DNA from: Vicinamibacteria bacterium
GTDB lineage: Bacteria > Acidobacteriota > Vicinamibacteria > Fen-336 > CBDFGD01
Assembly: GCA_965246965.1 (NCBI GenBank)
Contig: CBDFGD010000002.1
Location: 3,701,208-3,765,207 of the forward strand
Direction: 5' to 3'
Length of the DNA stretch: 64,000 nucleotides
Position numbers and translations under genes: made by a program. Shown here in pieces: positions 6,351 to 62,596 of the stretch (position 1 is its first letter; each line of letters begins with the position of its first letter). The notes under the pieces are model-generated. The model was given only the letters and a program-made list of their open reading frames with translations, did no database searches and was not told the origin of the DNA.

Positions 6351-7604
6351 TCAAGACCGTAATCTAGGAAATTCCGTCATCAGATAGACCGTGCGCCACA
6401 ACCACCACGCCAGGAAGCCGGAGACCTGGAAGCCGAACACTTCGGCCACGGCGCTTCTGTGGCCGAGCGAGCCCATCTGACCGAGGCCCTTGAAGTCGTA
6501 GCGTTTCTTCGAGCCGCCGCGGACCGTGGCGACGACGTTGTGAGCGGCGATGGCCGCCTGGCGCGTCGCGTGCTGTGCGGTTGGGGGCGCGATACCGCCG
6601 CCTGGCGCCGGTACCCTCGCCGTGTCGCCGAGCGCCCAGACGCTGTGGCCGCTATCGACGTGCAGCTCTTGGTTGACGAGGAGCCTGCCGTTCTCGCTGC
6701 AGGGCAGCCCCAGCGCAGAGACCAGCGGATGAGGGAACGACGGCACCGTCGACACGAGCGTTCGCGTCGGGATGCGCTCCCCGCCCTCGAGGACTGCTTC
6801 GGTTCCGGTCGCGGCGTGGAGCCGCGTGAGCAGCCTCAGGTCGACACCGCGCTTCTTGAGCAGCCGTTGCGCGAACAGGGCCAGCTGCTCCGAGACCTCG
6901 GGAAGCACCCGGTCGCGCGAGTGCAGCAGGACGACGCGAAGCTCCGAAGCATCGATGCCGCGGTAGCTCTTGGCAACGCCGCGCACGAAGTCGTTCAGCT
7001 CGGCGACGACCTCGACGCCGGAGAAGCCGCCGCCCGCGACTACGAACGTCAGCAGCTGTCGACGCAGCTCCGGGTCCGACTCGATCGAGGCCTCCTCGAG
7101 GGCGTGGATGACGTGATTGCGGAGGGCGAGCGCGTCGCCCATGTTCTTGAACGGCATCGCGTGCTCGGGCAGGCCGCGCATGCCGCGAAAGTCCGTGACG
7201 GTGCCGAGGGCGACGACCAGGTGGTCGAAGGGGATCACGTGAGGCTGGGGCCGGAAACCCGGCGCCGTGATGATCTGCTTGTGCTAGACGTCGACGCGCT
7301 CGATCTCGCGCACGTGAATGTCGGTGCGCGGCAGCATGCGGCGCAGCGGGCTGACGATGTCCAGGATGCCGACGCCACCCGAGATCACCTCGGGCAGCAT
7401 CGGCTGGAAGACGAAGTAGTTCTCCTTGTTGACGAGGGCGATCTCGAAATCGTCCCCGCGTCCGAGCCGCTTCTCCAGCTCGAGGGCCGTGTAGACGCCG
7501 GCAAAGCCGCCGCCGAGGACCACGACTCGCGGCTTGCGTGGAGCCGTCAGTGGGCGACTCCGATCAACGGCGGCCACGGAGACACAGAGACGCAGAGAAC
7601 GCAC
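6351..7604 (-). pseudogene. ndh: Type II NADH dehydrogenase (NDH-2, ndh) with in-frame TAG and transposon-truncated C-terminus
   Basis: VVVLGGGFAGVYTA dinucleotide fold and second GGGFSGVE motif. In-frame TAG at 7284-7286 (VDV*HKQII) with the same frame continuing. Last 9 codons (MTEFPRLRS*) are encoded by the transposon IR-R. Confidence 0.7.
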
Positions 7605-7820
7605 GGAGGAACGGCAGGCTTCGATCGGTCGTCATCCCGATCGAGGGCATGTGGATCCCGATCGGTCCGCGGCGATCGACTCGCACCACGAGGTGCGACC
7701 GTGTTGCACTCCAAGGCGCGGCCGCCTGGCTTCTTCGAGACGCGGTCAAAGCTGGCTCGTTCTCCGTGTCTCTGTGCCTCTGTGGCTCACCAGATCGTCA
7801 GCTGCTCACCCGGGGTTGGG

Positions 7821-8987
7821 CTACGCCGGCAGTCCGCGCTGGATGACGTGCTCCATCTCCTCGGCGAAGACATCGACCTCGTCCAGTGTGGTGTAGATGT
7901 TGGGCGTGACGCGAATTCCCTGGAATTCATCATGGACGATCGGCACGACGAAGACGCGTCGCTGCTTCCACAGATGCTCCTTGAGCGCCCGCGGGTCCAC
8001 TCCCTCGATGTTCACTGTGGCGATCGCGCCCGCCATCTCCGGATCGAGGCTGGGGAGGAGCCGGACCCTGGGGTGCTCCTTGAGCCGCAGCGCCCAACGG
8101 TCGCGCAGGTAGCGCAGCCGCGCCGCCTTGCGCTCGACGCCGATGCCGTTGTGGAAGGTCAGCGCCTCGGCGACGGCGTTGTGGTTGGCAGCGGGATGGG
8201 TGCCGATCTCCTCGTACTTGCGGACGTCGTCATCCATCTTCCCCGGAGCGGCCATCAGCGGCCACAGCTTCGGGACCTTCTCCTTGCGGACGTAGAGGAA
8301 GCCGCTGCCGATCGGCGCCAGCAGCCACTTGTGCAGGCTCGTGCCGTAGTAGTCGCAATCGAGATCGTCGCGCGTGAACGGGAAGTGGGCGAAGGCGTGG
8401 GCGCCGTCGACGATGACTTCGATGCCGTGCTCGCGCCCCAGTCGGGCGATCTGCTTGATCGGGAAGATCTGGCCCGTGAGGTTGGTGATGTGGCAAACGA
8501 GGATGACCCTGGTCTTCGGCGTGATCGCCCGTTCGAAGCGCTGCGCGAGGTCGTCCATGCTCGGCGGCGGAGTGGGGAACGAGATCGTCTTGAGGACCAG
8601 GCCCTCGCGACGCTCGCGCTGGCGCCAGGTCGTCAGCATGCGCCCGTAGTCCTGATTGGTCGTCAGGATCTCGTCGCCCGGCTCGAGGATTTCCCACATC
8701 GTGTACACGGGACACTCGTTGGAGCGATCCAGATAGCGCTTGAGCGCCTCGTGAACGTCGGCTGGCGACGGAGAGACGCCCCCGTTGTTGAGGTTGATGA
8801 TCGTGCGATCGACCGTGAAGGCCTGTTGGATCTCTCGCCAGTAGTCCTCGTCGGCCGCGACCGCTTCGGGGCCGCGTCCGGACGTGGCGCGGCTCGCCGC
8901 CTGGACCCGCGCGAGCCCGCCTTCGCGAAGCACCGAAACCGCTGCGGCACTGGCGGCCGCCCCCATGAAACTGCGCCTCGTCGTCAT
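7821..8987 (-). CDS. Class V aminotransferase / cysteine-desulfurase-like PLP enzyme with twin-arginine (Tat) signal peptide
   Basis: MTTRRSFMGAAASAAAVSV Tat motif; SLHKWLLAPIGSGFLYV PLP-lysine region; full-length 388 aa; TAG stop. Confidence 0.8.
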   Translation of the reverse strand: MTTRRSFMGAAASAAAVSVLREGGLARVQAASRATSGRGPEAVAADEDYWREIQQAFTVDRTIINLNNGGVSPSPADVHEALKRYLDRSNECPVYTMWEILEPGDEILTTNQDYGRMLTTWRQRERREGLVLKTISFPTPPPSMDDLAQRFERAITPKTRVILVCHITNLTGQIFPIKQIARLGREHGIEVIVDGAHAFAHFPFTRDDLDCDYYGTSLHKWLLAPIGSGFLYVRKEKVPKLWPLMAAPGKMDDDVRKYEEIGTHPAANHNAVAEALTFHNGIGVERKAARLRYLRDRWALRLKEHPRVRLLPSLDPEMAGAIATVNIEGVDPRALKEHLWKQRRVFVVPIVHDEFQGIRVTPNIYTTLDEVDVFAEEMEHVIQRGLPA

Positions 8988-30200: not shown

Positions 30201-30340
30201 CTGAATGACGCCTATGACGATGGCGCAGGCGATCCCGGCTCGCCATCGGATCAGGCCGATCAGGCTGCACGACAGGACCAGCGCGCCGAAGAGGCCCTGG
30301 AGGCTGAAGGGGTTGAGGAATCCGAAATCCAAAGACGCGC

Positions 30341-30383
30341 CTAGTGGCCCGTAACAGGGAGATCGGTGCCAGCGAGACCGCCA
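30341..30383. repeat. Partial copy (left arm only) of the CTAG-bounded hairpin element family
   Basis: CTAGTGGCCCGTAACAGGGAGATCGGTGCCAGCGAGACCGCC matches the left arm of copy C (62429-62470) with 2 mismatches, followed by a degenerate core start (gccgaggccctgg). Confidence 0.6.
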
Positions 30384-30544: not shown

Positions 30545-32048
30545 CTAGGAGTCTGCGCGGCAGTAGTTCAGCCCGGGTGTGTCATCGTGCCTTGTGACCC
30601 GAGAGATCATCTTGCCTGGGTTAAACGGCAGTAGTGGGCTCGCGGACGAGTGCTCGCGAGGGAGGACGGGCGGATCCAAGGCCGGGCGGTGGTCATACCC
30701 AGACCATCTTCTGATTGAGTCTCCTGAGGTTGAGCGCCAAGCAAACGAGATTCCACTCGGCGCTGGTTTTCTCAAGCCCTCGAAGGCTGAAGGATTGGAA
30801 ACCAAGCACAGCCTTGATCCATCCGAATGGCGGTTCGCCGAGTTTGCGCCGCTTGTACCACTTGCGACCACGTTTTCATGCGGAGCGTCGCTTCGAGCTT
30901 CGAATTCGACGTTGGTGGAGAGTCTTTCTTTTCTCTCCCCAGAGCCACGAAACCGTCGATTCCGGTACGTTCCAAGTGCAGTAGGTTCTTTTCGGAACGG
31001 TAGCCGGCATCGGCCAGGGCACGCTTGGGCTTCTCACCGGTGTTGGCTTGAGCCGTTTTCAGCATCGGCTCGAGCTGACCGACATCCGCAGCGTTGTTGA
31101 TCAACCCGGTCGCAACGATCAGCTGCGATTTCTCGTCGACGGCGGCTTGGGCATTGAAGCACTGCTGGTAGCCACTCGAATCCTTCATGATGCGGCTTTC
31201 GGGATCGGTGAAGTTGTCCTGCTTCTTGTCCGGAGGTACGCCAAATCTCCTTTTGAACTTTGACCCTCGCTTCGATTCCTTGTCATCCCCTGGCCGACGT
31301 CCGGCCTGCTGATCTTCTTCCTTCTGACGGGCCTCCAGACGTGCCTTCGCTGCTTGGATTTTCTTGAGCCGTGAATCTCGGCGCGCCAGCTCTTCTGGCA
31401 GTTCGTCGCCACGAAAATCAGGACCAAACTCGACGTCTTCCGCAGCATCTTCTTGTTTCGCAAGAGCGGTGATAGCCCGAATCTCTCGACGGAGCTGTTT
31501 CTCCGTTTTCTTCATACGCTCGTAGCTCATCGCCTTGTGCTTGCTGGCATTCGCCTTGACCTTCGTTCCATCCAGAATCAACGTCCCAAGCTTGACCAAA
31601 CCCACTTCTTGAGCCAGACGCACGACTTGGACGAATACAGATCGAAACTGGGACAAATGGTCACAACGGAAATCACTGATCGTCCGGTGTGCCGGGAAAT
31701 TGCCTCCGCTCAAATAACGGTATGCGACATCCTCTTCCAGCTTCTTCGCGATCCCACGAGACGAAAACGTCCCTGTCGCATAGCCGTAGATCAGAACCTT
31801 CAGCATCATTCGAGGATCGAATCGTCGGTTCCGACGTCCATCGCCCTCGTAGCGCTCGTAGAAAGCACGCACATCCATCGCCTCCACCGTATCCGAGATG
31901 AAAAACGAAAGATGACCCTCCGGAAGCCAGTCTCGTGGATTCGACGGAAACAAACTCGATCGGTCAGGACTGTACGGACGGAAACTCGTTCCCATAACTT
32001 CAAAAACGCTCATTCACCCGATTTCGTTCCTGCCGCGCAGACTCCTAG
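30545..32048 (-). mobile_element. IS1182-family insertion sequence, 1504 bp, 19-bp perfect terminal inverted repeats beginning with CTAG
   Basis: CTAGGAGTCTGCGCGGCAG at 30545-30563 and its exact reverse complement at 32030-32048. Lower GC than the flanks; contains a single transposase gene. Confidence 0.8.
30772..32013 (-). CDS. IS1182-family transposase
   Basis: 413 aa; [34 protein letters not shown]...[12 protein letters not shown]... and [13 protein letters not shown] motifs typical of IS1182/ISH3-like transposases. C-terminus may be truncated. Confidence 0.75.
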
Positions 32049-41255: not shown

Positions 41256-42187
41256 ATGGGAACAGCCAAGGCCCTGACGCTCGCCTGCGTCGTCGCTTCC
41301 GCGGTCTCGCTGTCCGCGGCCCAGCAGCTTCCCGACATGGTCGTAGCGCCGGGGGCCAGCGCCCCCTCGGCAAGCGTCGGGGCGCCGTCGTGGCGATGGA
41401 CCCACGCACGGGGCGCGTGATCGCGATCGTCAAGCCTGTGTACGGACTGCTCCACGCCTATCAACCGTGCTCGGTATTCAAGATCGTCGTGGGCGTAGCG
41501 GGGCTCGCCGAAGGTGTGATTGCGCCGTCCTCCCGCTACCGTTGCCAGCGGGGTTGTTGGGCTTGGCCGGGCCACGATTCAATCGACCTGCGCCGTGCGC
41601 TCGCAGTGTCCTGCAATCCCTACTTCCAGTGGGTGGGCTCGCGCCTGGGGTGGCCCCGCATCCGCGAGTATGCGGATCGTTTCGGCCTGGGTCGGACGAC
41701 GGGCATCAATCTCACTGGCGAGATCAAGGGTCGGCTGCCCTGGTCCGTGACGAAGGCCCGGGTCGGCTACGTGTCGAGCCACGCCGCCGGAATCCGCACG
41801 ACGGCGCTCCAACTCGGTGTCCTGATCTCCGCCACCGTCAACGGCGGCCACGTCATGGAGCCGCGGTTGGCGCCCGAGTCGGGATTCGTCGCGAAGAAGG
41901 GTTGGCGCATCCCAGCCGGAGTGCCCCTCGACGTCCTGGCCGGTGGGTACTACTCGGCCGTCACCGAGGGGAGTGCATTCGGCGCCTTCGACGCGGGCTT
42001 CGTCGCGGGCGGCAAGACAGGCACCTGCTCCGGGGTGGGCTGGCTGGCCTCGTACGCTCCGGTCGACGACCCGGAGCTCGTGATCGTCGTCTTCATCCGA
42101 AACGGCAACGGTCGCGACGCTTCCGCCGTCGCCGGCGACATCTACCGGCGCATCTATGGAAGCGCGAGCCTCGCCGCCGCTCGCTAG
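41256..42187 (+). CDS. Secreted penicillin-binding-protein transpeptidase-domain-only protein (PBP2-like); single-G deletion-type frameshift in the GGGG run at 41379-41382
   Basis: Signal peptide MGTAKALTLACVVASAVSLSAA (frame 0); then frame 2 ...VVAMDPRTGRVIAIV...CSVFK (SxxK)...SCN (SxN)...GKTGT (KTG). Confidence 0.6.
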
Positions 42188-42347
42188 TACTCTGATTCGT
42201 AAATACGGTGTCGCACCGAGAACGCCGAGGCGCCCGGATGGCAAGGAGCCGAAGAGGGAAAATACCGGGAGTATTTGACCGATGAGCGACGCAGCCAGGC
42301 GGGATGCATCGGCGTTCGAATGCAACCGTAGTTGCGGATCCGAGTAC
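42181..42347. repeat. CTAG-bounded hairpin element, copy B (167 bp): 9-bp perfect terminal inverted repeat plus ~35-bp imperfect stem around an 89-bp conserved core
   Basis: CTAGTACTC...GAGTACTAG termini; arms pair (GATTCG/CGGATC, TACGGT/ACCGTA). Core 42225-42313 is identical to copy C except 1 nt. The PBP stop (TAG 42185-42187) and PEGA stop (CTA 42344-42346) lie in the element termini. Confidence 0.7.
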
Positions 42348-44023
42348 TAGTTGGGCCGCAGGTCGATGGCGAGCTCGCTCGTCTCGCCGCTCTTGACGTT
42401 TGCTGTCGCCTGGTAGGTCTTGTAGTCGGGCCGAACCACCTCGATCAGATGCGGGCCCGGCGGCAGCGGGAACGGCTCCCGTCGCAGAATCTGGCTCGTA
42501 CCGACGAAGTGCCCGTCGACGTAGACCGTCGCGTCCTCGGGCCTGACGTCGACCCGAAGACGTCCCGCGTCCGCGGGAAGCGTGGGGGCTCGGGCGTCCT
42601 CGGACCCGGCGCGAGGGGATTCGAGGCTTTGCTGTGACGGCGCCTCGACCCGTCGCTCGCTCGTCTGGACCGGCTCCGCATACGTCTCGCCGCCGGTCAG
42701 ATCCTCGACCGTGGGGGAGCCTTCGCCACGCTCGAGGTCAGCGCGGTACTTCAGCGTCTGTCCTTCCGAGATGAAGACGGCGACCTGGTGGGTCCGGTGG
42801 CCCTCGATCTCGATCGAAATCTCGTGGCGTCCTGTCGTGAGCACCAGCTTCTGGAACGCGCCGTCGAAGTCGTCGACGAGGCCGACGTAGCTCCCGTCCA
42901 AATAGACGAGGGCCTTGTTTGGTTTGACCTGGAGACGGATGGCTCCGGTCGGCTCGTAGTCAACGTGCTCCACCCGGTGTGTCACGGTGCCGCCGTAGTA
43001 GGGGTAGCTGGAGCCATAGCCGTAGTAGGGATAGCCGTACCCGGAGCCGAACGAGAGCCAGGGCCAGCCAAAACCGACATTGAAACCACCGCCCCAGAAT
43101 CCGCCGTAGCGGTAGTACGGCCGGTAGCGGTAGTAGGGGTACCGGTAGCCGTAGTAGCCGGGGCGATAGTAGCCGCCGTAGAGACCGTACGACGGCCCAC
43201 GACGGAAGCGGCCGCGCCCGCCGTAGCCGGTTCCCGTCCCGGGGCGTGGATGACGCGACTGCGCGCCCGTTCGCGGCTGCGCCGATCTGCCACTCGATCG
43301 CCCCTGGGTGACGATGGAGCTGCCGGTGTTCGAGCCGGACGAGCGGCTGGGACCGACGCCTACCTGAGTGTTCGACCCCCGCGGCCGAGCGTGGCGAGAT
43401 CCGGACCGGTCGCTCTCCTGACGAGCCTGGCCGGACGAATTGCGGCTGGCGTTACGACCCGCGGCGGCGCGCAGCGCGTCGACGGAGCTTCGCGAATTCG
43501 CCGCGCGGGAGCGCGTCGGCGACTGCTGCGAATCTCGCGACGACGATCTCGAGGGAGTCGAGCGTTGCGAGATCGACCCCGAGCGGTCCGACTGGCGCTG
43601 CTGCGAATCTCGCGACGACGATTTCGAGGCAGGCGAACGTTGCGACACCGACCTCGAGCGGTTCGCCTGGCGCTGCGAATCTCGGGACGACGACCTCGAG
43701 GCAGTCGAGCGCTGCGAGATCGACCCCGAGCGGTCCGACTGGCGCTGCTGCGAATCTCGGGACGACGACCTCGAGGCAGTCGAGTGTTGCGAGATCGACC
43801 TCGAGCGATCCGCCTGGCGCTGCGACGACCGGGAAGCAGCAGGCCTCGAAGAACGTGAAGAAGATGGTCGGGCCGAGGAGCGGGCCTGGCCTCCCCGGCT
43901 GGACGGCCGGCGAGACGCGGCGCGCGGTTTCTCGTCTTGCCCAAAGGCGGCTCCTGCCGTGAACCCCCCGGGCAGCAGTAGTGCGATTGCTGCTGTCAGG
44001 GTGGCAGCTCGCTTTGCTTGCAT
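42347..44023 (-). CDS. Secreted repeat protein: signal peptide, Ser/Arg-rich 27-aa tandem repeats, Gly/Tyr-rich low-complexity region, two C-terminal PEGA domains
   Basis: SD GAGGAGG 5 nt before the ATG (44023). MQAKRAATLTAAIALLLPGGFTAGAAFG signal. Repeats SRSISQxSTASRSSSRDSQQRQSDRSG x4. PEGA-like ...ALVYLDGSYVG... and ...ATVYVDGHFVG.... Confidence 0.7.
   Translation of the reverse strand: MQAKRAATLTAAIALLLPGGFTAGAAFGQDEKPRAASRRPSSRGGQARSSARPSSSRSSRPAASRSSQRQADRSRSISQHSTASRSSSRDSQQRQSDRSGSISQRSTASRSSSRDSQRQANRSRSVSQRSPASKSSSRDSQQRQSDRSGSISQRSTPSRSSSRDSQQSPTRSRAANSRSSVDALRAAAGRNASRNSSGQARQESDRSGSRHARPRGSNTQVGVGPSRSSGSNTGSSIVTQGRSSGRSAQPRTGAQSRHPRPGTGTGYGGRGRFRRGPSYGLYGGYYRPGYYGYRYPYYRYRPYYRYGGFWGGGFNVGFGWPWLSFGSGYGYPYYGYGSSYPYYGGTVTHRVEHVDYEPTGAIRLQVKPNKALVYLDGSYVGLVDDFDGAFQKLVLTTGRHEISIEIEGHRTHQVAVFISEGQTLKYRADLERGEGSPTVEDLTGGETYAEPVQTSERRVEAPSQQSLESPRAGSEDARAPTLPADAGRLRVDVRPEDATVYVDGHFVGTSQILRREPFPLPPGPHLIEVVRPDYKTYQATANVKSGETSELAIDLRPN
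43480..43830 (-). repeat. Coding tandem repeat, ~81-bp unit x ~4.3, within the PEGA protein gene
   Basis: Near-identical 81-bp units visible directly (e.g. CTGCGAATCTCG(C/G)GACGACGA(T/C)(C/T)TCGAGG...GAGATCGACC(C/T)CGAGCG(G/A)TCCG(A/C)CTGGCG). Confidence 0.8.
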
Positions 44024-44148
44024 CGACGCCTCCTCGGGAATGTGTCCCTGATCACCTTTGTGCAAACGCCATGCCGGCTCGGGTCGCCGAACCAGACGAG
44101 TAAGCAGTTGAGCAGGAACGACTTTCTTGTAGCAGCTCGACGGGGCGT

Positions 44149-44166
44149 TGTCCACGGCCGTGGACA
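44149..44166. promoter_or_regulatory. Perfect 18-bp palindrome TGTCCACGGCCGTGGACA in the divergent intergenic region between the PEGA gene and lpxB (candidate operator)
   Basis: The sequence equals its own reverse complement; it lies 36 bp upstream of the lpxB ATG and ~125 bp upstream of the divergently transcribed PEGA gene. Confidence 0.35.
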
Positions 44167-44201
44167 CTCGCGATCGGAATCAGCGATTAGGATGAAGCAC
44201 A

Positions 44202-45832: not shown

Positions 45833-46216
45833 TTGACGGACGCAATCCTGGTCGTCGACGACGACCAGAACATCCTGAAACTCGAGCAGGCGATCCTCTC
45901 GAGGCAGGGCTACGAAGTGACCCTGGCGCAAGGCGGGAAGGAGTGCCTGGCGCAGCTGGCCGAGCGGGAGTTCGATCTGGTCCTGCTCGACGTGATGATG
46001 CCGGATGTGGACGGCTACACCGTGTGTCGGAAGATCCGGGAAGACGCGCGCTTGAGCGACATGCCCGTGATCTTCCTGACCGCCAAGGGGGGTGGCGAGG
46101 CGATCGGCGAGGGCTTCGATGCCGGGGGCAGCATGTACATCAGCAAGCCGTTCACGGCCAGCAAGCTGTTGGAAATGGTCCGAACGGTGCTCGACGCACG
46201 GGGGGCGAAGGCCTAG
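45833..46216 (+). CDS. Single-domain response regulator (CheY-like receiver)
   Basis: ILVVDDDQN...DLVLLDVMMPDVDG...VIFLTAKGG receiver motifs; TTG start. Confidence 0.8.
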   Translation: MTDAILVVDDDQNILKLEQAILSRQGYEVTLAQGGKECLAQLAEREFDLVLLDVMMPDVDGYTVCRKIREDARLSDMPVIFLTAKGGGEAIGEGFDAGGSMYISKPFTASKLLEMVRTVLDARGAKA

Positions 46217-46378
46217 CAGCCCGTGGTGGAAGTGCTCCGCGTCGAGGGCGAAAAAGGACCGCTCTCGTCGTGGTATGACTTTCGCCAGGCGCTGCTAAGC
46301 TCGGGCCGACGGCGGGGTCGACGCCCGGGGCCGCAGCCGGGCGAGGCGCGAAACGAATCGAAACGAAGGGGGAGAGCA

Positions 46379-52609: not shown

Positions 52610-52848
52610 TTCCGCCTCGAACGGGGTCTCCCCCAAGAAGAAAAAAGCCCTGGCCGATGCTGCGGCCCAGGGCTTCGATCCGTTCGGCTAGTTTCTAGTG
52701 CTCTAGCTCGAGGGCCTCCGTCCGCAGCGCGTTCCCAGGGGAACGTTCGGCGAGATGACGACGCCGGTGACGGAGGCTTTCATGTCTCTTCTTCGAGGCG
52801 CTGATCTTCGCAAAGCGCTCGCCGAAGGTCAATAGAAAAACGACCGGG

Positions 52849-60132: not shown

Positions 60133-60157
60133 CTTCAGCGAACCGGCCGCTCGACTC

Positions 60158-61612
60158 TCAAGGCTTCCGGCCCGCTTGCACCCGCTTGAGGAAGGTGCCG
60201 GCCTTCACGACTTCGCCTGAATCGAGGCCGTTGATGAGGGCCAGGGTCTCGATCGGCACGGCGGAGGGGTACGTGCGGTCGAACTCCGTGAGCGTCATGT
60301 CGCGGTCGATCCTCACGATGCGCACCTGGTCCGGCTGGACGTTCAGCTTGCGCCGATCGGTGAGCACCGCGAAGCTCATCACGGCGGCGCGAGCTGCCGC
60401 CTCGTTGCGGCTCCATCCGGCCTGGCTCCCGTACGCGAGCAGGCGGTACACGTTGCCCCCGAGACTGACGAACGTCGCCGCCCCGACCAGGGCGCCCGCC
60501 TGCGACGACGCGACGAAGCGGCGACTCACGACGGGGCCGGCAGTGACACGGGCGAGCCAGGGACGTCCTTCACTGACGCCGCTCTTCACGAAAAACACCC
60601 TCGCGGCGGCCTCCGGCGTGGCCTCGGACGCGAGGCTGAAGGTGACCGCGGCTTCGCGCCCCGCGCTCTGGGCCGCGACCTCCTGCTTGCCGTTGAAGGT
60701 CTTCCAGCCGGGCGGGAACTCGAGCTGGAAGGCCAGGTCGGGGTGGTAGAAATGCGAGCCCTGAAAAAACCCCTCGCGCGGGTTTTCACCAAAGACCATC
60801 CCCTCGAGTCTGGCGAGATAGCGATTGCGGCCGGCGTCCGCCGAGGTCGCCTCGCCGCCATCCGTCAGCGCCTCGATTCGTCGCTGTCGGTCCTGCGGAT
60901 CGGGATGAGTGGACAGCCAACCGGGCAGGCTGCCGCCGGAGCCTTGCGAGACCCCGGCCAGCATCGCCATGACGTTCTCGAGCGCCGCGGGAGGATAGTC
61001 GCCGTTCCGCATGTAGCGCACACCGAGCGCATCGGCCTCCCGTTCCTGATCGCGGCCGAACTTCAAGAACAGCAACCCGAGACCCGTTTCTCCGAGTCCG
61101 CTGAAGCGGCGAACGCCTTCCGAGAGGATGCTGCCGACACCCAGGCCGAGCTGCGCGAGCTGGGCCTTGCTCATCTGGTTCACCGAGTGCCGCCCGGTGA
61201 CGTGACCGATCTCGTGGCCCAGGACGCCGGCCAGCTCGGCTTCGGAGCTCAAGTGGGCGAGGATGCCGCGCGTCACGAAGATGTACCCGCCGGGCAGCGC
61301 GAATGCGTTGACGCTCGGATCGTCGACGACGCGGAAGCTCCAGGGGAGGCTCGGCCGCTCGGACTCACTCGCCAGGCTGTGACCCAGACCCGCCACGTAG
61401 TCTGCGACCGCGTCGTCCGGATAGTGGCCGAGCTGCTGAGTGAACTCGGCGTCCGCCTGACGGCCCATCTCGATCTCTTGCGCTTCTCCGATCAGACTGA
61501 ACTGACGCTTGCCCGTCGCGGGATTGACCGCACAACCCAGCGCCAGGCATGCGACCATCGAGCAGAGCAGGGCCGTTCGCGGCGGGAGGGAGCGGGGCGA
61601 CTTCAAGGTCAT
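60158..61612 (-). CDS. M48-family zinc metalloprotease lipoprotein
   Basis: Lipobox LALGC after the signal peptide; HEIGHV zinc motif; 484 aa. Confidence 0.8.
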   Translation of the reverse strand: MTLKSPRSLPPRTALLCSMVACLALGCAVNPATGKRQFSLIGEAQEIEMGRQADAEFTQQLGHYPDDAVADYVAGLGHSLASESERPSLPWSFRVVDDPSVNAFALPGGYIFVTRGILAHLSSEAELAGVLGHEIGHVTGRHSVNQMSKAQLAQLGLGVGSILSEGVRRFSGLGETGLGLLFLKFGRDQEREADALGVRYMRNGDYPPAALENVMAMLAGVSQGSGGSLPGWLSTHPDPQDRQRRIEALTDGGEATSADAGRNRYLARLEGMVFGENPREGFFQGSHFYHPDLAFQLEFPPGWKTFNGKQEVAAQSAGREAAVTFSLASEATPEAAARVFFVKSGVSEGRPWLARVTAGPVVSRRFVASSQAGALVGAATFVSLGGNVYRLLAYGSQAGWSRNEAAARAAVMSFAVLTDRRKLNVQPDQVRIVRIDRDMTLTEFDRTYPSAVPIETLALINGLDSGEVVKAGTFLKRVQAGRKP

Positions 61613-61670
61613 GACCATTATCTCTAGGATGACATATCGGAAGTCCGCGGGGGCGGAGCAGGGAGTCTCG

Positions 61671-62432
61671 ATGCGATCGCTTGTGTCTCTGATCACAATC
61701 GCCCTGCTCGGCCTCCAGAGCCAGGTCGCCGCCGCCGAGCGCGTCAAGATCGAAACCGATCGGGCGATCGTCTTCGATTCCGGTGCGCTGGCGCGGACGA
61801 AAATGGAGGAGTTCGCGGGACGGGTCGATCGCGGCGTGCGCGACATCGAGGCTTTCCTGCGCCGTGGTCCCGGCGGAACAGCCTTCGAAACGCGCCGCAT
61901 CACCTTCTATGTCAGCGACGAGGTGCGCATCTCGCGGGCGAAACGCCACTCGGTGATGCTGCCGCTCACCCGTGTGCGACGCGACGAGGCTCCCTACCTC
62001 CACGAGGCGACCCACGTGCTGGTGCCCGGACGCAGCGAAATGGTCTGGCTCAACGAGGGATTCGCCAGCTACGTGGAGAGCTGGGTGGCGGAGGACAAAG
62101 GGGGCTACGACGCCCACGTCTTCAGCCGGGCGGGAAACGCCGGCATCGATCGCGACGCCGTCCGTCACCTGCGCACGGGGCACGGGCAGTCCGCGCTCGA
62201 CTACGTCGGGACAGCAGGCGTGCCGCGGGGCTTCTATCGGCATCGACGCAGAGTCGCAGCCCCGTTCTACGTCTTGTCTCAATCCTTCGTGAAGTTCCTC
62301 GTCGAGCGGACCGGCCTGCACCTCGTGGTGGACCTCTTCGCCGAGCGCGACGTCGGCCAGGCCGTGCGGATTCGCACGGGCCGCTCGATCGGCGAGTGGA
62401 AAGCGGACTGGCTGGCCGAGCTGCAGCCCTAG
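61671..62432 (+). CDS. Secreted hypothetical protein with HExxH motif (putative zinc-peptidase-like)
   Basis: SD GGGAG; signal peptide MRSLVSLITIALLGLQSQVAAA; YLHEATHVL HExxH; the TAG stop lies in the first CTAG of repeat copy C. Confidence 0.5.
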   Translation: MRSLVSLITIALLGLQSQVAAAERVKIETDRAIVFDSGALARTKMEEFAGRVDRGVRDIEAFLRRGPGGTAFETRRITFYVSDEVRISRAKRHSVMLPLTRVRRDEAPYLHEATHVLVPGRSEMVWLNEGFASYVESWVAEDKGGYDAHVFSRAGNAGIDRDAVRHLRTGHGQSALDYVGTAGVPRGFYRHRRRVAAPFYVLSQSFVKFLVERTGLHLVVDLFAERDVGQAVRIRTGRSIGEWKADWLAELQP

Positions 62433-62596
62433 TGGCCCGTAACAGGGAGATCGATGCCAGCGAGACTGCCGAGGCGCCCGGATGGCAAGGAGCCGAAGAG
62501 GGAGAATACCGGGAGTATTTGACCGATGAGCGACGCAGCCAGGCGGGATGCATCGGCGGTCGCAGCGGTATCGAATCCCCTGTTACAGGCCACTAG
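62429..62596. repeat. CTAG-bounded hairpin element, copy C (168 bp): ~38-bp imperfect inverted-repeat stem around the conserved 89-bp core
   Basis: CTAGTGGCCCGTAACAGGGAGATCGATGCC... pairs with ...GGTATCGAATCCCCTGTTACAGGCCACTAG. Core 62472-62560 is identical to copy B except 1 nt and contains a 15-codon mini-ORF with a GAGG SD. Confidence 0.7.

Follow-up and report, generated by a model that had tools for sequence, protein, structure and literature searches.

Among described systems, the RUP repeat (repeat unit of pneumococcus) linked to IS630-Spn1 is accepted as a bacterial MITE mobilised by an IS630 element on evidence like that presented here (PMC2229807). RUP is likewise a small non-coding repeat whose inverted-repeat ends are like those of the resident IS630-family element and which inserts at TA; it is often found beside or inside IS elements and its transcript folds as a long stem-loop (PMC2229807). 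However, its sequence is unrelated to that of the family described here, it belongs to the Firmicutes rather than the Acidobacteriota, it measures 107 bp against 161–177 nt, and here several arm classes are found on one covarying core, with CTAG regenerated at both ends. Correia (NEMIS) elements of Neisseria are also similar, being about 100–155 bp long with inverted repeats of about 24 bp, TA duplication and a hairpin formed by the whole element, short and long variants produced by internal deletion, and RNA-level effects on neighbouring genes (PMC2229807). Their sequence is unrelated as well, and their IHF site and promoter motifs were not found in our element. To our knowledge, Correia elements have no autonomous partner, while several subfamilies of the present family have evident IS630 partners. 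ERIC and REP/BIME of enterobacteria resemble the present family as intergenic imperfect palindromes transcribed within neighbouring mRNAs (PMC2229807). ERIC also shows compensatory changes, yet differs by its 7-bp inverted repeats. We know of no partner for ERIC. In plants, Stowaway MITEs are short hairpin elements with TA duplication that are mobilised by Tc1/mariner transposases, and mariner-like transposases are reported to cross-mobilise Stowaway via the inverted repeats (Feschotte et al. 2005, cited in PMC2170065). Stowaway elements differ in being eukaryotic, and their interiors are not known as more conserved than their inverted repeats.

In the window, that is, the whole 64-kb stretch of DNA that was analysed, we have identified two full copies of a hairpin element, B (42184–42350) and C (62429–62596, CTAG ends included in both), in addition to a half copy and a short relative. 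Each full copy forms a single long hairpin, with predicted folds of −84.6 kcal/mol (z = −8.2) and −100 kcal/mol (z = −11.3) for the two. The features are as follows, where OZ252227.1 is a Vicinamibacterales chromosome that carries many copies.

42187–42347, + strand: copy B, element proper, a B-type MITE of 161 nt with ends G...C (CM 169 bits)
42185–42186, no strand: left TA of the B target-site duplication, inside CTAG 42184–42187, whose TAG is the stop of the PBP gene ending at 42187
42348–42349, no strand: right TA of the B target-site duplication, inside CTAG 42347–42350; CTA 42347–42349 serves the minus-strand PEGA gene as its TAG stop
42187–42209, + strand: left terminal inverted repeat of B, GTACTCTGATTCGTAAATACGGT, best IS630 tip match 8/12
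42325–42347, + strand: right terminal inverted repeat (arm) of B
42214–42318, + strand: conserved core hairpin of B, with P2–P4, three tandem G·A motifs and the apical stem AAAUAC-CGGGA-GUAUUU
62432–62593, + strand: copy C, element proper, a C-type MITE of 162 nt (CM 148 bits)
62430–62431, no strand: left TA duplication of C, inside CTAG 62429–62432, whose TAG is the stop of gene 61509–62432
62594–62595, no strand: right TA duplication of C, inside CTAG 62593–62596
62432–62457, + strand: left terminal inverted repeat of C, GTGGCCCGTAACAGGGAGATCG..., like the IS630 repeats of L006 and L032 (10–11/12, 15/20)
62563–62593, + strand: right terminal inverted repeat of C
62458–62562, + strand: conserved core hairpin of C, matching the core of the L048 copy at 94 of 95 positions
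30344–30382, + strand: half copy A, a C-type left arm, with TA at 30342–30343
46216–46295, + strand: short relative of 80 nt with OZ252227.1-type arms (GCAGCCCGTGGTGGAAGT...) and a different short centre (CM 26.5 bits)

As the original prediction had it, the core is nearly identical in both copies (95% over 105 nt), and the 33-mer and the 50-mer that flank its single A/G difference occur exactly twice each where none would be expected. The claims of CTAG at both ends of B and C, and of a terminal TAG serving as the stop codon of the adjacent gene in three cases (PBP, PEGA and 61509–62432), were equally borne out. Within each copy the arms are self-complementary, as had been proposed, over 26 nt in B (85%) and 47 nt in C (77%), with arms of 23–47 nt overall. 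That they differ completely between copies is true of the outer arms; the two have in common the flanking TA and a loose GTGnCCyGT-like motif at the tip, and the regions just inside are homologous.

A search with a 22-mer of the core hit 21 metagenome contigs and, among reference genomes, 24 loci, of which 21 lie on the 6.64-Mb chromosome OZ252227.1, so that the core is present in other Acidobacteria genomes and metagenomes as well; further diverged copies were added by nhmmer and a covariance model, and no copy was found in the viral contigs searched. Copies are 161–177 nt long, or 230 nt where an extra branch is present. The core module was found with at least five arm classes, extra hairpins of variable length sit at fixed positions, and deletion derivatives and ends-only remnants occur among the copies; at L015:1617–1706 the arms are kept and the apical core is deleted. 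OZ252227.1 carries 22 dispersed copies, which confirms a genuine repeated hairpin family. Since these have the same arms and TA flanks within one genome, a pattern that the original prediction itself had tied to an ordinary MITE, its view that the family is something else was abandoned. A literature search by sequence string and organism returned no earlier description. The element is of an ordinary kind, a MITE and not a free-standing RNA gene.

A 2-bp TA duplication is the signature of IS630/Tc1-mariner elements. TA lies on both flanks in 25 of the 35 full copies, while the bases outside it vary. The inferred target was CTAG in 16 of these 25, the others being CTAC, CTAT, CTAA, TTAA, GTAA, ATAA and ATAG; the short relative also lies between TAs (CTAG ... 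CTAA). In the related genome L048 (82% amino acid identity to the window), the site of copy C is a single CTAG (...GCCGCCCTAGCAGCCC...) where the window reads CTAG-element C-CTAG, and both flanks align. Conversely, L048 carries a B-type copy (L048:1288–1517) between methyltransferase and M48 peptidase genes, which is non-orthologous to the window's B site and whose counterpart in the window, 60133–60157, is without the element. The L046 ortholog of the PBP/PEGA junction is 12 nt long and also without it. Only site C provides a base-exact empty site, the window 60133–60157 and L046 sites being too diverged. Together, the TA target duplications and the empty sites demonstrate insertion. IS630-family elements duplicate TA (PMC2170065), and the same source gives a preference of IS630 for the TA in CTAG, for which it cites Tenzen & Ohtsubo 1991 by title.

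Moreover, IS630-family transposase genes (DDE_3 and HTH domains) directly adjoin copies in L006, L017, L031, L032 and L040, with the TA in common. The M1 arms match the inverted repeats of the L031 IS at 12/12 tip bases and 17–18/20, those of L010b match the L006 IS (11–12/12 and 16–17/20), those of L004b match IS630 repeats at 12/12, and those of C do so in part (10–11/12, 15/20, in L006 and L032). The arms of the subfamilies differ because different arms match the repeats of different IS630 elements. For the B-type and OZ252227.1-type arms, a cognate IS was not found in the about 0.3 Mb of flanking DNA searched (best 8/12 and 6/12, respectively), and the 64-kb window holds no IS630 transposase gene. 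The family is small and non-coding, with terminal inverted repeats, TA duplication and dispersed copies that vary in presence and absence; likeness of the repeats to an IS630 element was seen for M1, L010b and L004b, in part for C, and, in the flanking DNA searched, not for B or the OZ252227.1 type.

Very probably, then, B and C represent two subfamilies of a Vicinamibacterales MITE family moved in trans by IS630/Tc1-mariner-family transposases. From its ends and target sites we infer such mobilisation for the family as a whole, and an IS630 transposase would presumably also have moved the B and OZ252227.1 types. Transposases encoded elsewhere in the genome would bind the outer 20–26 bp of the arms as terminal inverted repeats; the element would be excised and integrated at a TA, chiefly that inside CTAG, which would be duplicated. 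As the element begins with G and ends with C, each insertion would rebuild CTAG on both sides, keeping the neighbour's TAG stop codon and making fresh targets, and these in turn would explain copies and IS630 elements standing back to back. The arm classes may correspond to different IS630 lineages, with the same central module of about 105 nt joined to at least five arm classes. CTAG is scarce in the window (31 observed against 89–198 expected), with 8 of the 31 at the ends of mobile elements; a hairpin or remnant was sought at the CTAG sites 48978, 50461 and 52688–52706, and none was evident.

Half copy A agrees with the left arm of C at 41 of 43 positions over 30340–30382, flanking CTAG included, and breaks off exactly where arm meets core. 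Its right half was not found within the window, and the DNA that follows seems to resemble the 3′ end of another ORF. It had been said to abut an IS, but the inverted repeat of that IS (30545–30563) lies about 160 bp away. This IS5/IS1182-like element (30545–32048) ends in CTAG and has perfect 19-bp repeats, CTAGGAGTCTGCGCGGCAG, at 30545–30563 and 32030–32048. One arm variant of OZ252227.1 has the tip CTAGGAG, the same 7 bases with which this IS begins, which would be in favour of a MITE moved by an element of this kind; a REP-associated tyrosine transposase was another candidate. Yet beyond these 7 bases the similarity is at chance (6–7/12, 9/20), several subfamilies match IS630 repeats at 12/12, IS630 elements adjoin copies, and TA duplication is the IS630/Tc1-mariner signature (PMC2170065). 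As for the REP route, REP units are 20–40 nt long, have GTAG-type tips and RAYT transposases and make no TA duplication, whereas our element is about 165 nt long with TA flanks and IS630-like tips, and no RAYT gene was seen; classification as REP/BIME was rejected. Mobilisation by either of these other transposases is thus highly improbable.

We now turn to the core, a rod-like hairpin in which helices P2 and P4 covary, other helices are fixed in sequence, and three tandem G·A/A·G motifs bias folding towards one strand. The core is under genuine structural constraint. In its alignment 96.4% of cells are paired, and double changes were found at 37 of 52 pairs, against 15.3 ± 1.9 in shuffles and 9–15 with partners slid; helix 1 is paired in 95.5% across the 35 copies. 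The Watson-Crick pairs separating the tandem G·A motifs covary in diverged subfamilies. The two strands are not equivalent: 40 cells are G:U and 16 are A·C, two G:U pairs are nearly invariant, and the + strand fold is more stable than that of the minus strand by 10–15 kcal/mol. Cut-and-paste DNA transposition needs no such strand asymmetry. The original prediction had seen in the arms a selected stem rather than a transposase-binding inverted repeat; the compensatory covariation is real, but the arms are IS630-type terminal inverted repeats. Its conserved mini-ORF was not sustained. An ATG is found in 5 of 35 copies, within the hypervariable, compensated stem P4, where the start column reads CTC in 10, CTG in 9, ATG in 5, GTC in 3 and other triplets in the rest, and a gene for a 15-aa small protein was rejected. 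The single core difference, A at 42260 in B and G at 62504 in C, which had been taken for a conservative K/R codon change, instead gives the apical stem either an A:U or a G:U closing pair.

Covariation of this strength throughout, including internal helices outside the inverted-repeat tips, could also suggest a structured non-coding RNA gene or a cis-regulatory RNA family, in which the hairpin is the product, the copies are paralogous and the arms form a structure-only stem. The nearly invariant G:U pairs and the excess of G:U over A·C, the three conserved tandem G·A motifs with their covarying separators, the variable-length hairpins at fixed positions, reminiscent of expansion segments, and a core better conserved than neighbouring genes would all fit. 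Even so, we regard an RNA gene as improbable: insertion is evident from the duplicated TA targets and the empty sites, the arms agree with IS630 repeats, and deletion derivatives and ends-only remnants are as expected of a decaying mobile element. In addition, neither B nor C contains a sigma-70-like promoter or an intrinsic terminator, and orientation relative to neighbouring genes is mixed, with about 7 copies in the same and 4 in the opposite direction in tandem contexts (the GC3-based gene calls being crude), so that an independent non-coding RNA gene is not what these copies look like. Rfam 15 gave no match at gathering score for the whole window and none at E ≤ 10 for the element, in accordance with the original prediction, which did not recognise the element as a described RNA family.

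Other readings were tried and rejected. On OZ252227.1, the minus strand carries 16 of 21 copies, across both GC-skew halves and with no switch at the skew change; as the 16:5 ratio does not flip with GC skew, a single-strand DNA element (IS200/IS605-type PATE or integron attC) was dismissed. The symmetric internal TAs in B and M1 might recall an older MITE, the core, nested at TA inside a palindromic ends-only MITE, but any TA in one arm necessarily has its mirror image in the opposite arm, and subfamilies do not agree in their inferred inner ends, which leaves this reading without support. Resemblances to hammerhead, SRP RNA, kink-turn and CsrA-binding GGA loops were considered and had no support from model searches.

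What the core does can be approached through its conservation. The core of C and that of the L048 copy are identical at 94 of 95 positions, while the flanking genes are 80–89% identical. Between B and its L048 relative there are 6 differences in about 50 nt of arms (about 11%) and 1 in about 115 nt of interior (about 1%). Within one genome, pi is 0.08 for the core 5′ of the probe, 0.10–0.12 for the arms and 0.33 for P4, which is about three times as variable as arms or core and is still paired. The diverged subfamilies L024b, L004b and L010b retain the architecture through compensatory changes. Judging from these divergences, the interior has changed less than the inverted repeats, unlike in a textbook MITE.

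It is possible, though we would not favour it, that the core has no function and that its conservation reflects recent spread or horizontal transfer, ascertainment, and palindrome-driven correction keeping the arms complementary. All copies were collected with a core probe, so the picture of one core with many arms is in part a product of the search; the same arms are also seen with another centre (46213–46298) or without the apical core (L015:1617–1706), the pi of the core 5′ of the probe is only slightly below that of the arms in the one genome, and there is neither promoter nor orientation bias. On the other hand, P4 is three times as variable as arms or core yet stays paired, which makes the rest look constrained and not merely young; divergence of about 11% in the arms and about 1% in the interior is not what a recent transfer of the entire element would produce; and L024b, L004b and L010b keep the architecture by compensatory changes. 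Tentatively, we suggest that the core of about 105 nt may instead be a functional single-strand module, most likely RNA but possibly a transposition-aiding fold, spread by MITEs with interchangeable IS630-type ends. Such a module would explain why the core survives end swaps and has changed less than the repeats or the genes around it, and why covarying helices, invariant G:U pairs and G·A motifs are found on one strand only. Our best guess is that it would act as a single-strand fold that aids transposition, or one that makes read-through transcripts harmless or stable.

Annotators should mask such hairpins as MITEs and not take them for RNA genes, small ORFs or terminators. The element accounts for odd gene ends with stops inside CTAG, for clustered back-to-back elements and for rearrangements such as the half copy at 30341–30382, and it offers a way to follow IS630 activity in a soil phylum that has hardly been studied. 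It is also a clean natural example of a MITE whose interior appears constrained more tightly than its transposase-binding ends and which has been re-fitted with several ends. If the core aids transposition or acts as RNA, this would be a new facet of the biology of IS630/Tc1-mariner MITEs.

The window carries two CTAG-bounded hairpin elements.

Copy B: 42184-42350, CTAG at start and end, read in the window sequence.
Copy C: 62429-62596, CTAG at start and end, read in the window sequence.

Both share a core of 105 nt (42214-42318 in B and 62458-62562 in C) with 95% identity, within which long exact stretches occur twice each in the window against 0 expected. The outer arms of B and C are unlike in sequence, yet self-complementary within each copy, so the repeats, CTAG ends, common core and copy-specific self-complementary arms of the original prediction are all borne out by the window sequence. 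Each copy folds as a single long imperfect hairpin (-84.6 kcal/mol, z = -8.2 for B; -100 kcal/mol, z = -11.3 for C), and the fold of the reverse strand is weaker by 13-14 kcal/mol. Bacterial MITEs (small non-coding mobile elements with inverted-repeat ends) in the 100-200 bp range generally form long stem-loops (PMC2229807). Elsewhere, at 7573-7786, lies a ~214-bp inverted-repeat element with 29-nt arms of 86% complementarity (GCCACGGAGACACAGAGACGCAGAGAACG...), which lacks flanking TA and has no relation to this family.

Public collections were probed with a 22-mer of the apical core, which was found at 24 loci in reference genomes: 21 in OZ252227.1, a 6.64-Mb Vicinamibacterales chromosome, 2 in another Vicinamibacterales genome and 1 in Acidobacteria UBA2161. 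It was also found in 21 metagenome contigs, with no match in viral contigs. No prior description was found in Rfam or in the literature searched, and the family appears undescribed. The OZ252227.1 copies have one arm type throughout, CTAG-CAGCCCGTGGTGAAAGT...ACTTTCACCACGGGCTG-CTAG, with a minor variant starting in GGAG and ending in CTCC, while metagenome copies bear further arm classes on the same core (M1, GTGTTCCGTCCGCGAGG...; M2, ending ...AACAGGACAC). Profile and covariance-model searches of the retrieved DNA (loci with L numbers) added one more full copy, as well as diverged subfamilies whose arms differ and whose apical stem is compensated (L024:6613-6777, L004:3234-3411, L010:421-586); a derivative without the apical core lies at L015:1617-1706. 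Element tips alone were seen as mini-palindromes, CTAGGAGCCCGTGGCTCCTAG at L009 ~7905-7925 (minus) and TAGCAGCCTGCTAG at L019 ~1957-1970, which excision or a hairpin-mediated deletion may have left behind. The window holds one related short element.

Short element: 46213-46298, an 80-nt TA-flanked hairpin whose arms are OZ252227.1-type but whose centre differs.

With this element, the window's genome holds at least 3 arm classes. All copies were ascertained with the core probe; the same arms are also found on other centres, so mosaicism runs both ways.

The sole constant flank of the 35 full copies is TA on each side, present on both sides in 25 of them, which defines the element proper as G...C and TA as its target-site duplication. 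The original prediction had suggested looking for CTAG target duplications at additional copies; bases outside the TA vary, and the inferred target is CTAG in 16 of the 25, the others being CTAC, CTAT, CTAA, TTAA, GTAA, ATAA and ATAG. An empty site for C was found in a relative, L048, with the same gene order (82% identity of the upstream protein): a single CTAG (...GCCGCCCTAGCAGCCC...) stands exactly at the window's CTAG-element C-CTAG and both flanks align. The ortholog of the PBP/PEGA junction, where B lies, is 12 nt with no element. Conversely, L048 has a B-type copy of 230 nt, including a 63-nt extra branch, between methyltransferase and M48-peptidase genes, where the window has a 25-nt spacer and no element. 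The PEGA gene beside B (42347-44167, minus strand) is a 606-aa ORF ending in PEGA domains, with internal tandem repeats of 75-nt and 27-nt units at 42992-43169 and 43509-43877; the closest homologue spans no more than 337 aa, so the repeat-rich portion upstream may be a region apart or one that evolves fast.

CTAG is rare in the window (31 observed vs 89-198 expected), and 8 of the 31 sites are mobile-element ends. Three CTAGs within 19 nt at 52688-52706 (GGCTAGTTTCTAGTGCTCTAGC) show no evident hairpin remnant. C-TAG stop codons are among the few available targets, and the G...C ends restore CTAG on both sides, such that the adjacent stop codon survives and a new target arises. The coincidence of element ends with TAG stops noted originally is real, and scarce targets together with ends that rebuild CTAG explain it. 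The new target at each end also accounts for copies and IS elements that abut with TA in common (L006, L017, L025, L031, L032, L040).

ORFs with DDE_3 and helix-turn-helix domains directly adjoin copies at five loci. They belong to IS630-family elements, whose own terminal repeats likewise lie within C-TA-G. Transposons of this family move by cut-and-paste, entering at TA and duplicating it (PMC2170065), and IS630 itself is reported to favour TA in CTAG (PMC2170065, citing Tenzen & Ohtsubo 1991).

Agreement of MITE arms with IS630 terminal repeats over the first 12 nt and the first 20 nt (M1, L010b and L004b are arm classes or subfamilies of the family)
M1 arms: IS630 of L031, 12/12 and 17-18/20
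L010b arms: IS630 of L006, 11-12/12 and 16-17/20
L004b arms: L006b, 12/12; L032, 16/20
Window copy C arms: L006b, 10-11/12; L032, 15/20
Window copy B arms: best available IS630, 8/12
OZ252227.1-type arms: best available IS630, 6/12

No IS630 partner for copy B or the OZ252227.1-type arms was found in the ~0.3 Mb examined. Judged from these terminal sequences, the partner of the family is very probably an IS630-family transposase, and the copy-specific compensatory arms would be the inverted repeats of different IS630 lineages; since both ends would have to fit the same transposase, the two ends of each copy co-vary. The arms had been read as a selected stem rather than as transposase-binding inverted repeats, a reading that gives way to arm tips matching IS630 terminal repeats at up to 12/12. 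The family is an IS630/Tc1-mariner-type MITE, a well-known kind of element; the same lines of evidence led to the acceptance of pneumococcal RUP as a MITE mobilised by IS630 (PMC2229807). At L032:1-1313 and L040:1-1191, an IS630-family element lies between two hairpin MITEs in inverted orientation, sharing TA with them, an arrangement that could move as a composite or yield chimeric elements. At L006:6059-7500, an IS630 transposase gene beside a MITE is truncated after ~150 aa; next to it, an ORF on the opposite strand resembles, by eye, a group II intron reverse transcriptase.

The half copy A (30340-30382) agrees with C's left arm at 41 of 43 positions and consists of a C-type left arm plus TA, ending exactly at the arm/core junction; no right half was found in the window. 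The DNA after it resembles the C-terminus of a different ORF (...PNEIGHRLAAEALAPIVEALLE, then a stop). Copy A was described as abutting an IS1182 element, from which it is in fact separated by ~160 bp.

Complete IS: 30545-32048, ~1.5 kb, both ends in CTAG, perfect 19-bp inverted repeats CTAGGAGTCTGCGCGGCAG at 30545-30563 and 32030-32048.
IS transposase ORF: 30772-32013, minus strand, DUF772 and DDE_Tnp_1, IS5/IS1182-like.

This IS seems to insert at the same scarce CTAG sites as the MITEs. Copy A is probably the product of a deletion beside a MITE; the IS5/IS1182-like element entered this region too.

In the 35 copies aligned to the covariance model, 96.4% of cells are paired, and double changes are seen in 37 of 52 pairs vs 15.3±1.9 in column shuffles and 9-15 with partners slid, counts that are not probabilities given the kinship of the sequences and an alignment made to fit the model. 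The compensatory covariation originally proposed is confirmed, and extends from the arms to internal helices. Helix P2 and above all P4 (5-6 bp) are hypervariable but compensated; within OZ252227.1, P4 has a pi of 0.33, the arms 0.10-0.12 and the part of the core not covered by the probe 0.08. Purine-rich "loops" align to give one unbroken helix that holds three tandem G·A/A·G motifs; the Watson-Crick pairs between these motifs covary (A:U to C:G in L024b; G:C to A:U in L007 and L020). The sole B/C core difference is the closing pair of the apical stem, A:U vs G:U. Two G:U pairs are nearly invariant, and elsewhere G:U outnumbers A·C cells by 40 to 16. In all subfamilies tested, the plus strand gives the better fold, except for the short derivative L015s, where the strands are equal. 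Between the window and L048, coding DNA is 80-89% identical and cores 94/95, with 6 arm positions and 1 interior position distinguishing B from the B-type copy of L048. Additional hairpins 11-63 nt long, some with GAAA or CGAAG-type loops, occur at a few fixed core positions (5' of P4, or between P1b and P2).

Carriers of extra hairpins: L027, L028, L038, L039, L045; L004:2133-2308, L010:3026-3202, L013:7778-7954; L048:1325-1387.

Covariation, strand asymmetry, conservation and fixed insertions together indicate that the interior has been constrained in the lineages that went on transposing, and that the fold of one strand matters. A conserved 15-aa mini-ORF, also proposed, finds no support: its ATG, in which the A stands in place of a paired C in the window copies, falls in the hypervariable 5' strand of P4, and the start column in the 35 copies reads CTC in 10, CTG in 9, ATG in 5, GTC in 3 and other triplets in the rest.

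Several observations speak against an independent RNA gene. No promoter or terminator was found in B and C, orientation relative to neighbouring genes is mixed, and no Rfam family matches, in keeping with the earlier remark that no known RNA family was recognised. In OZ252227.1 (L001-L024), 16 of 21 copies are on the minus strand, in both GC-skew halves, with no strand switch following replication direction; a rough, uncomputed estimate of this overall bias gives p ~0.03. By judgement rather than measurement, three readings of the core carry nearly equal weight, each short of probable: it may aid transposition, e.g. by joining two ends ~110 bp apart or binding a factor; it may have no function; or, only slightly less likely, it may work as RNA within read-through transcripts, lending them stability or insulation. 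The part that merits follow-up is the core, which is constrained, strand-biased and has been joined to several different sets of transposon ends.
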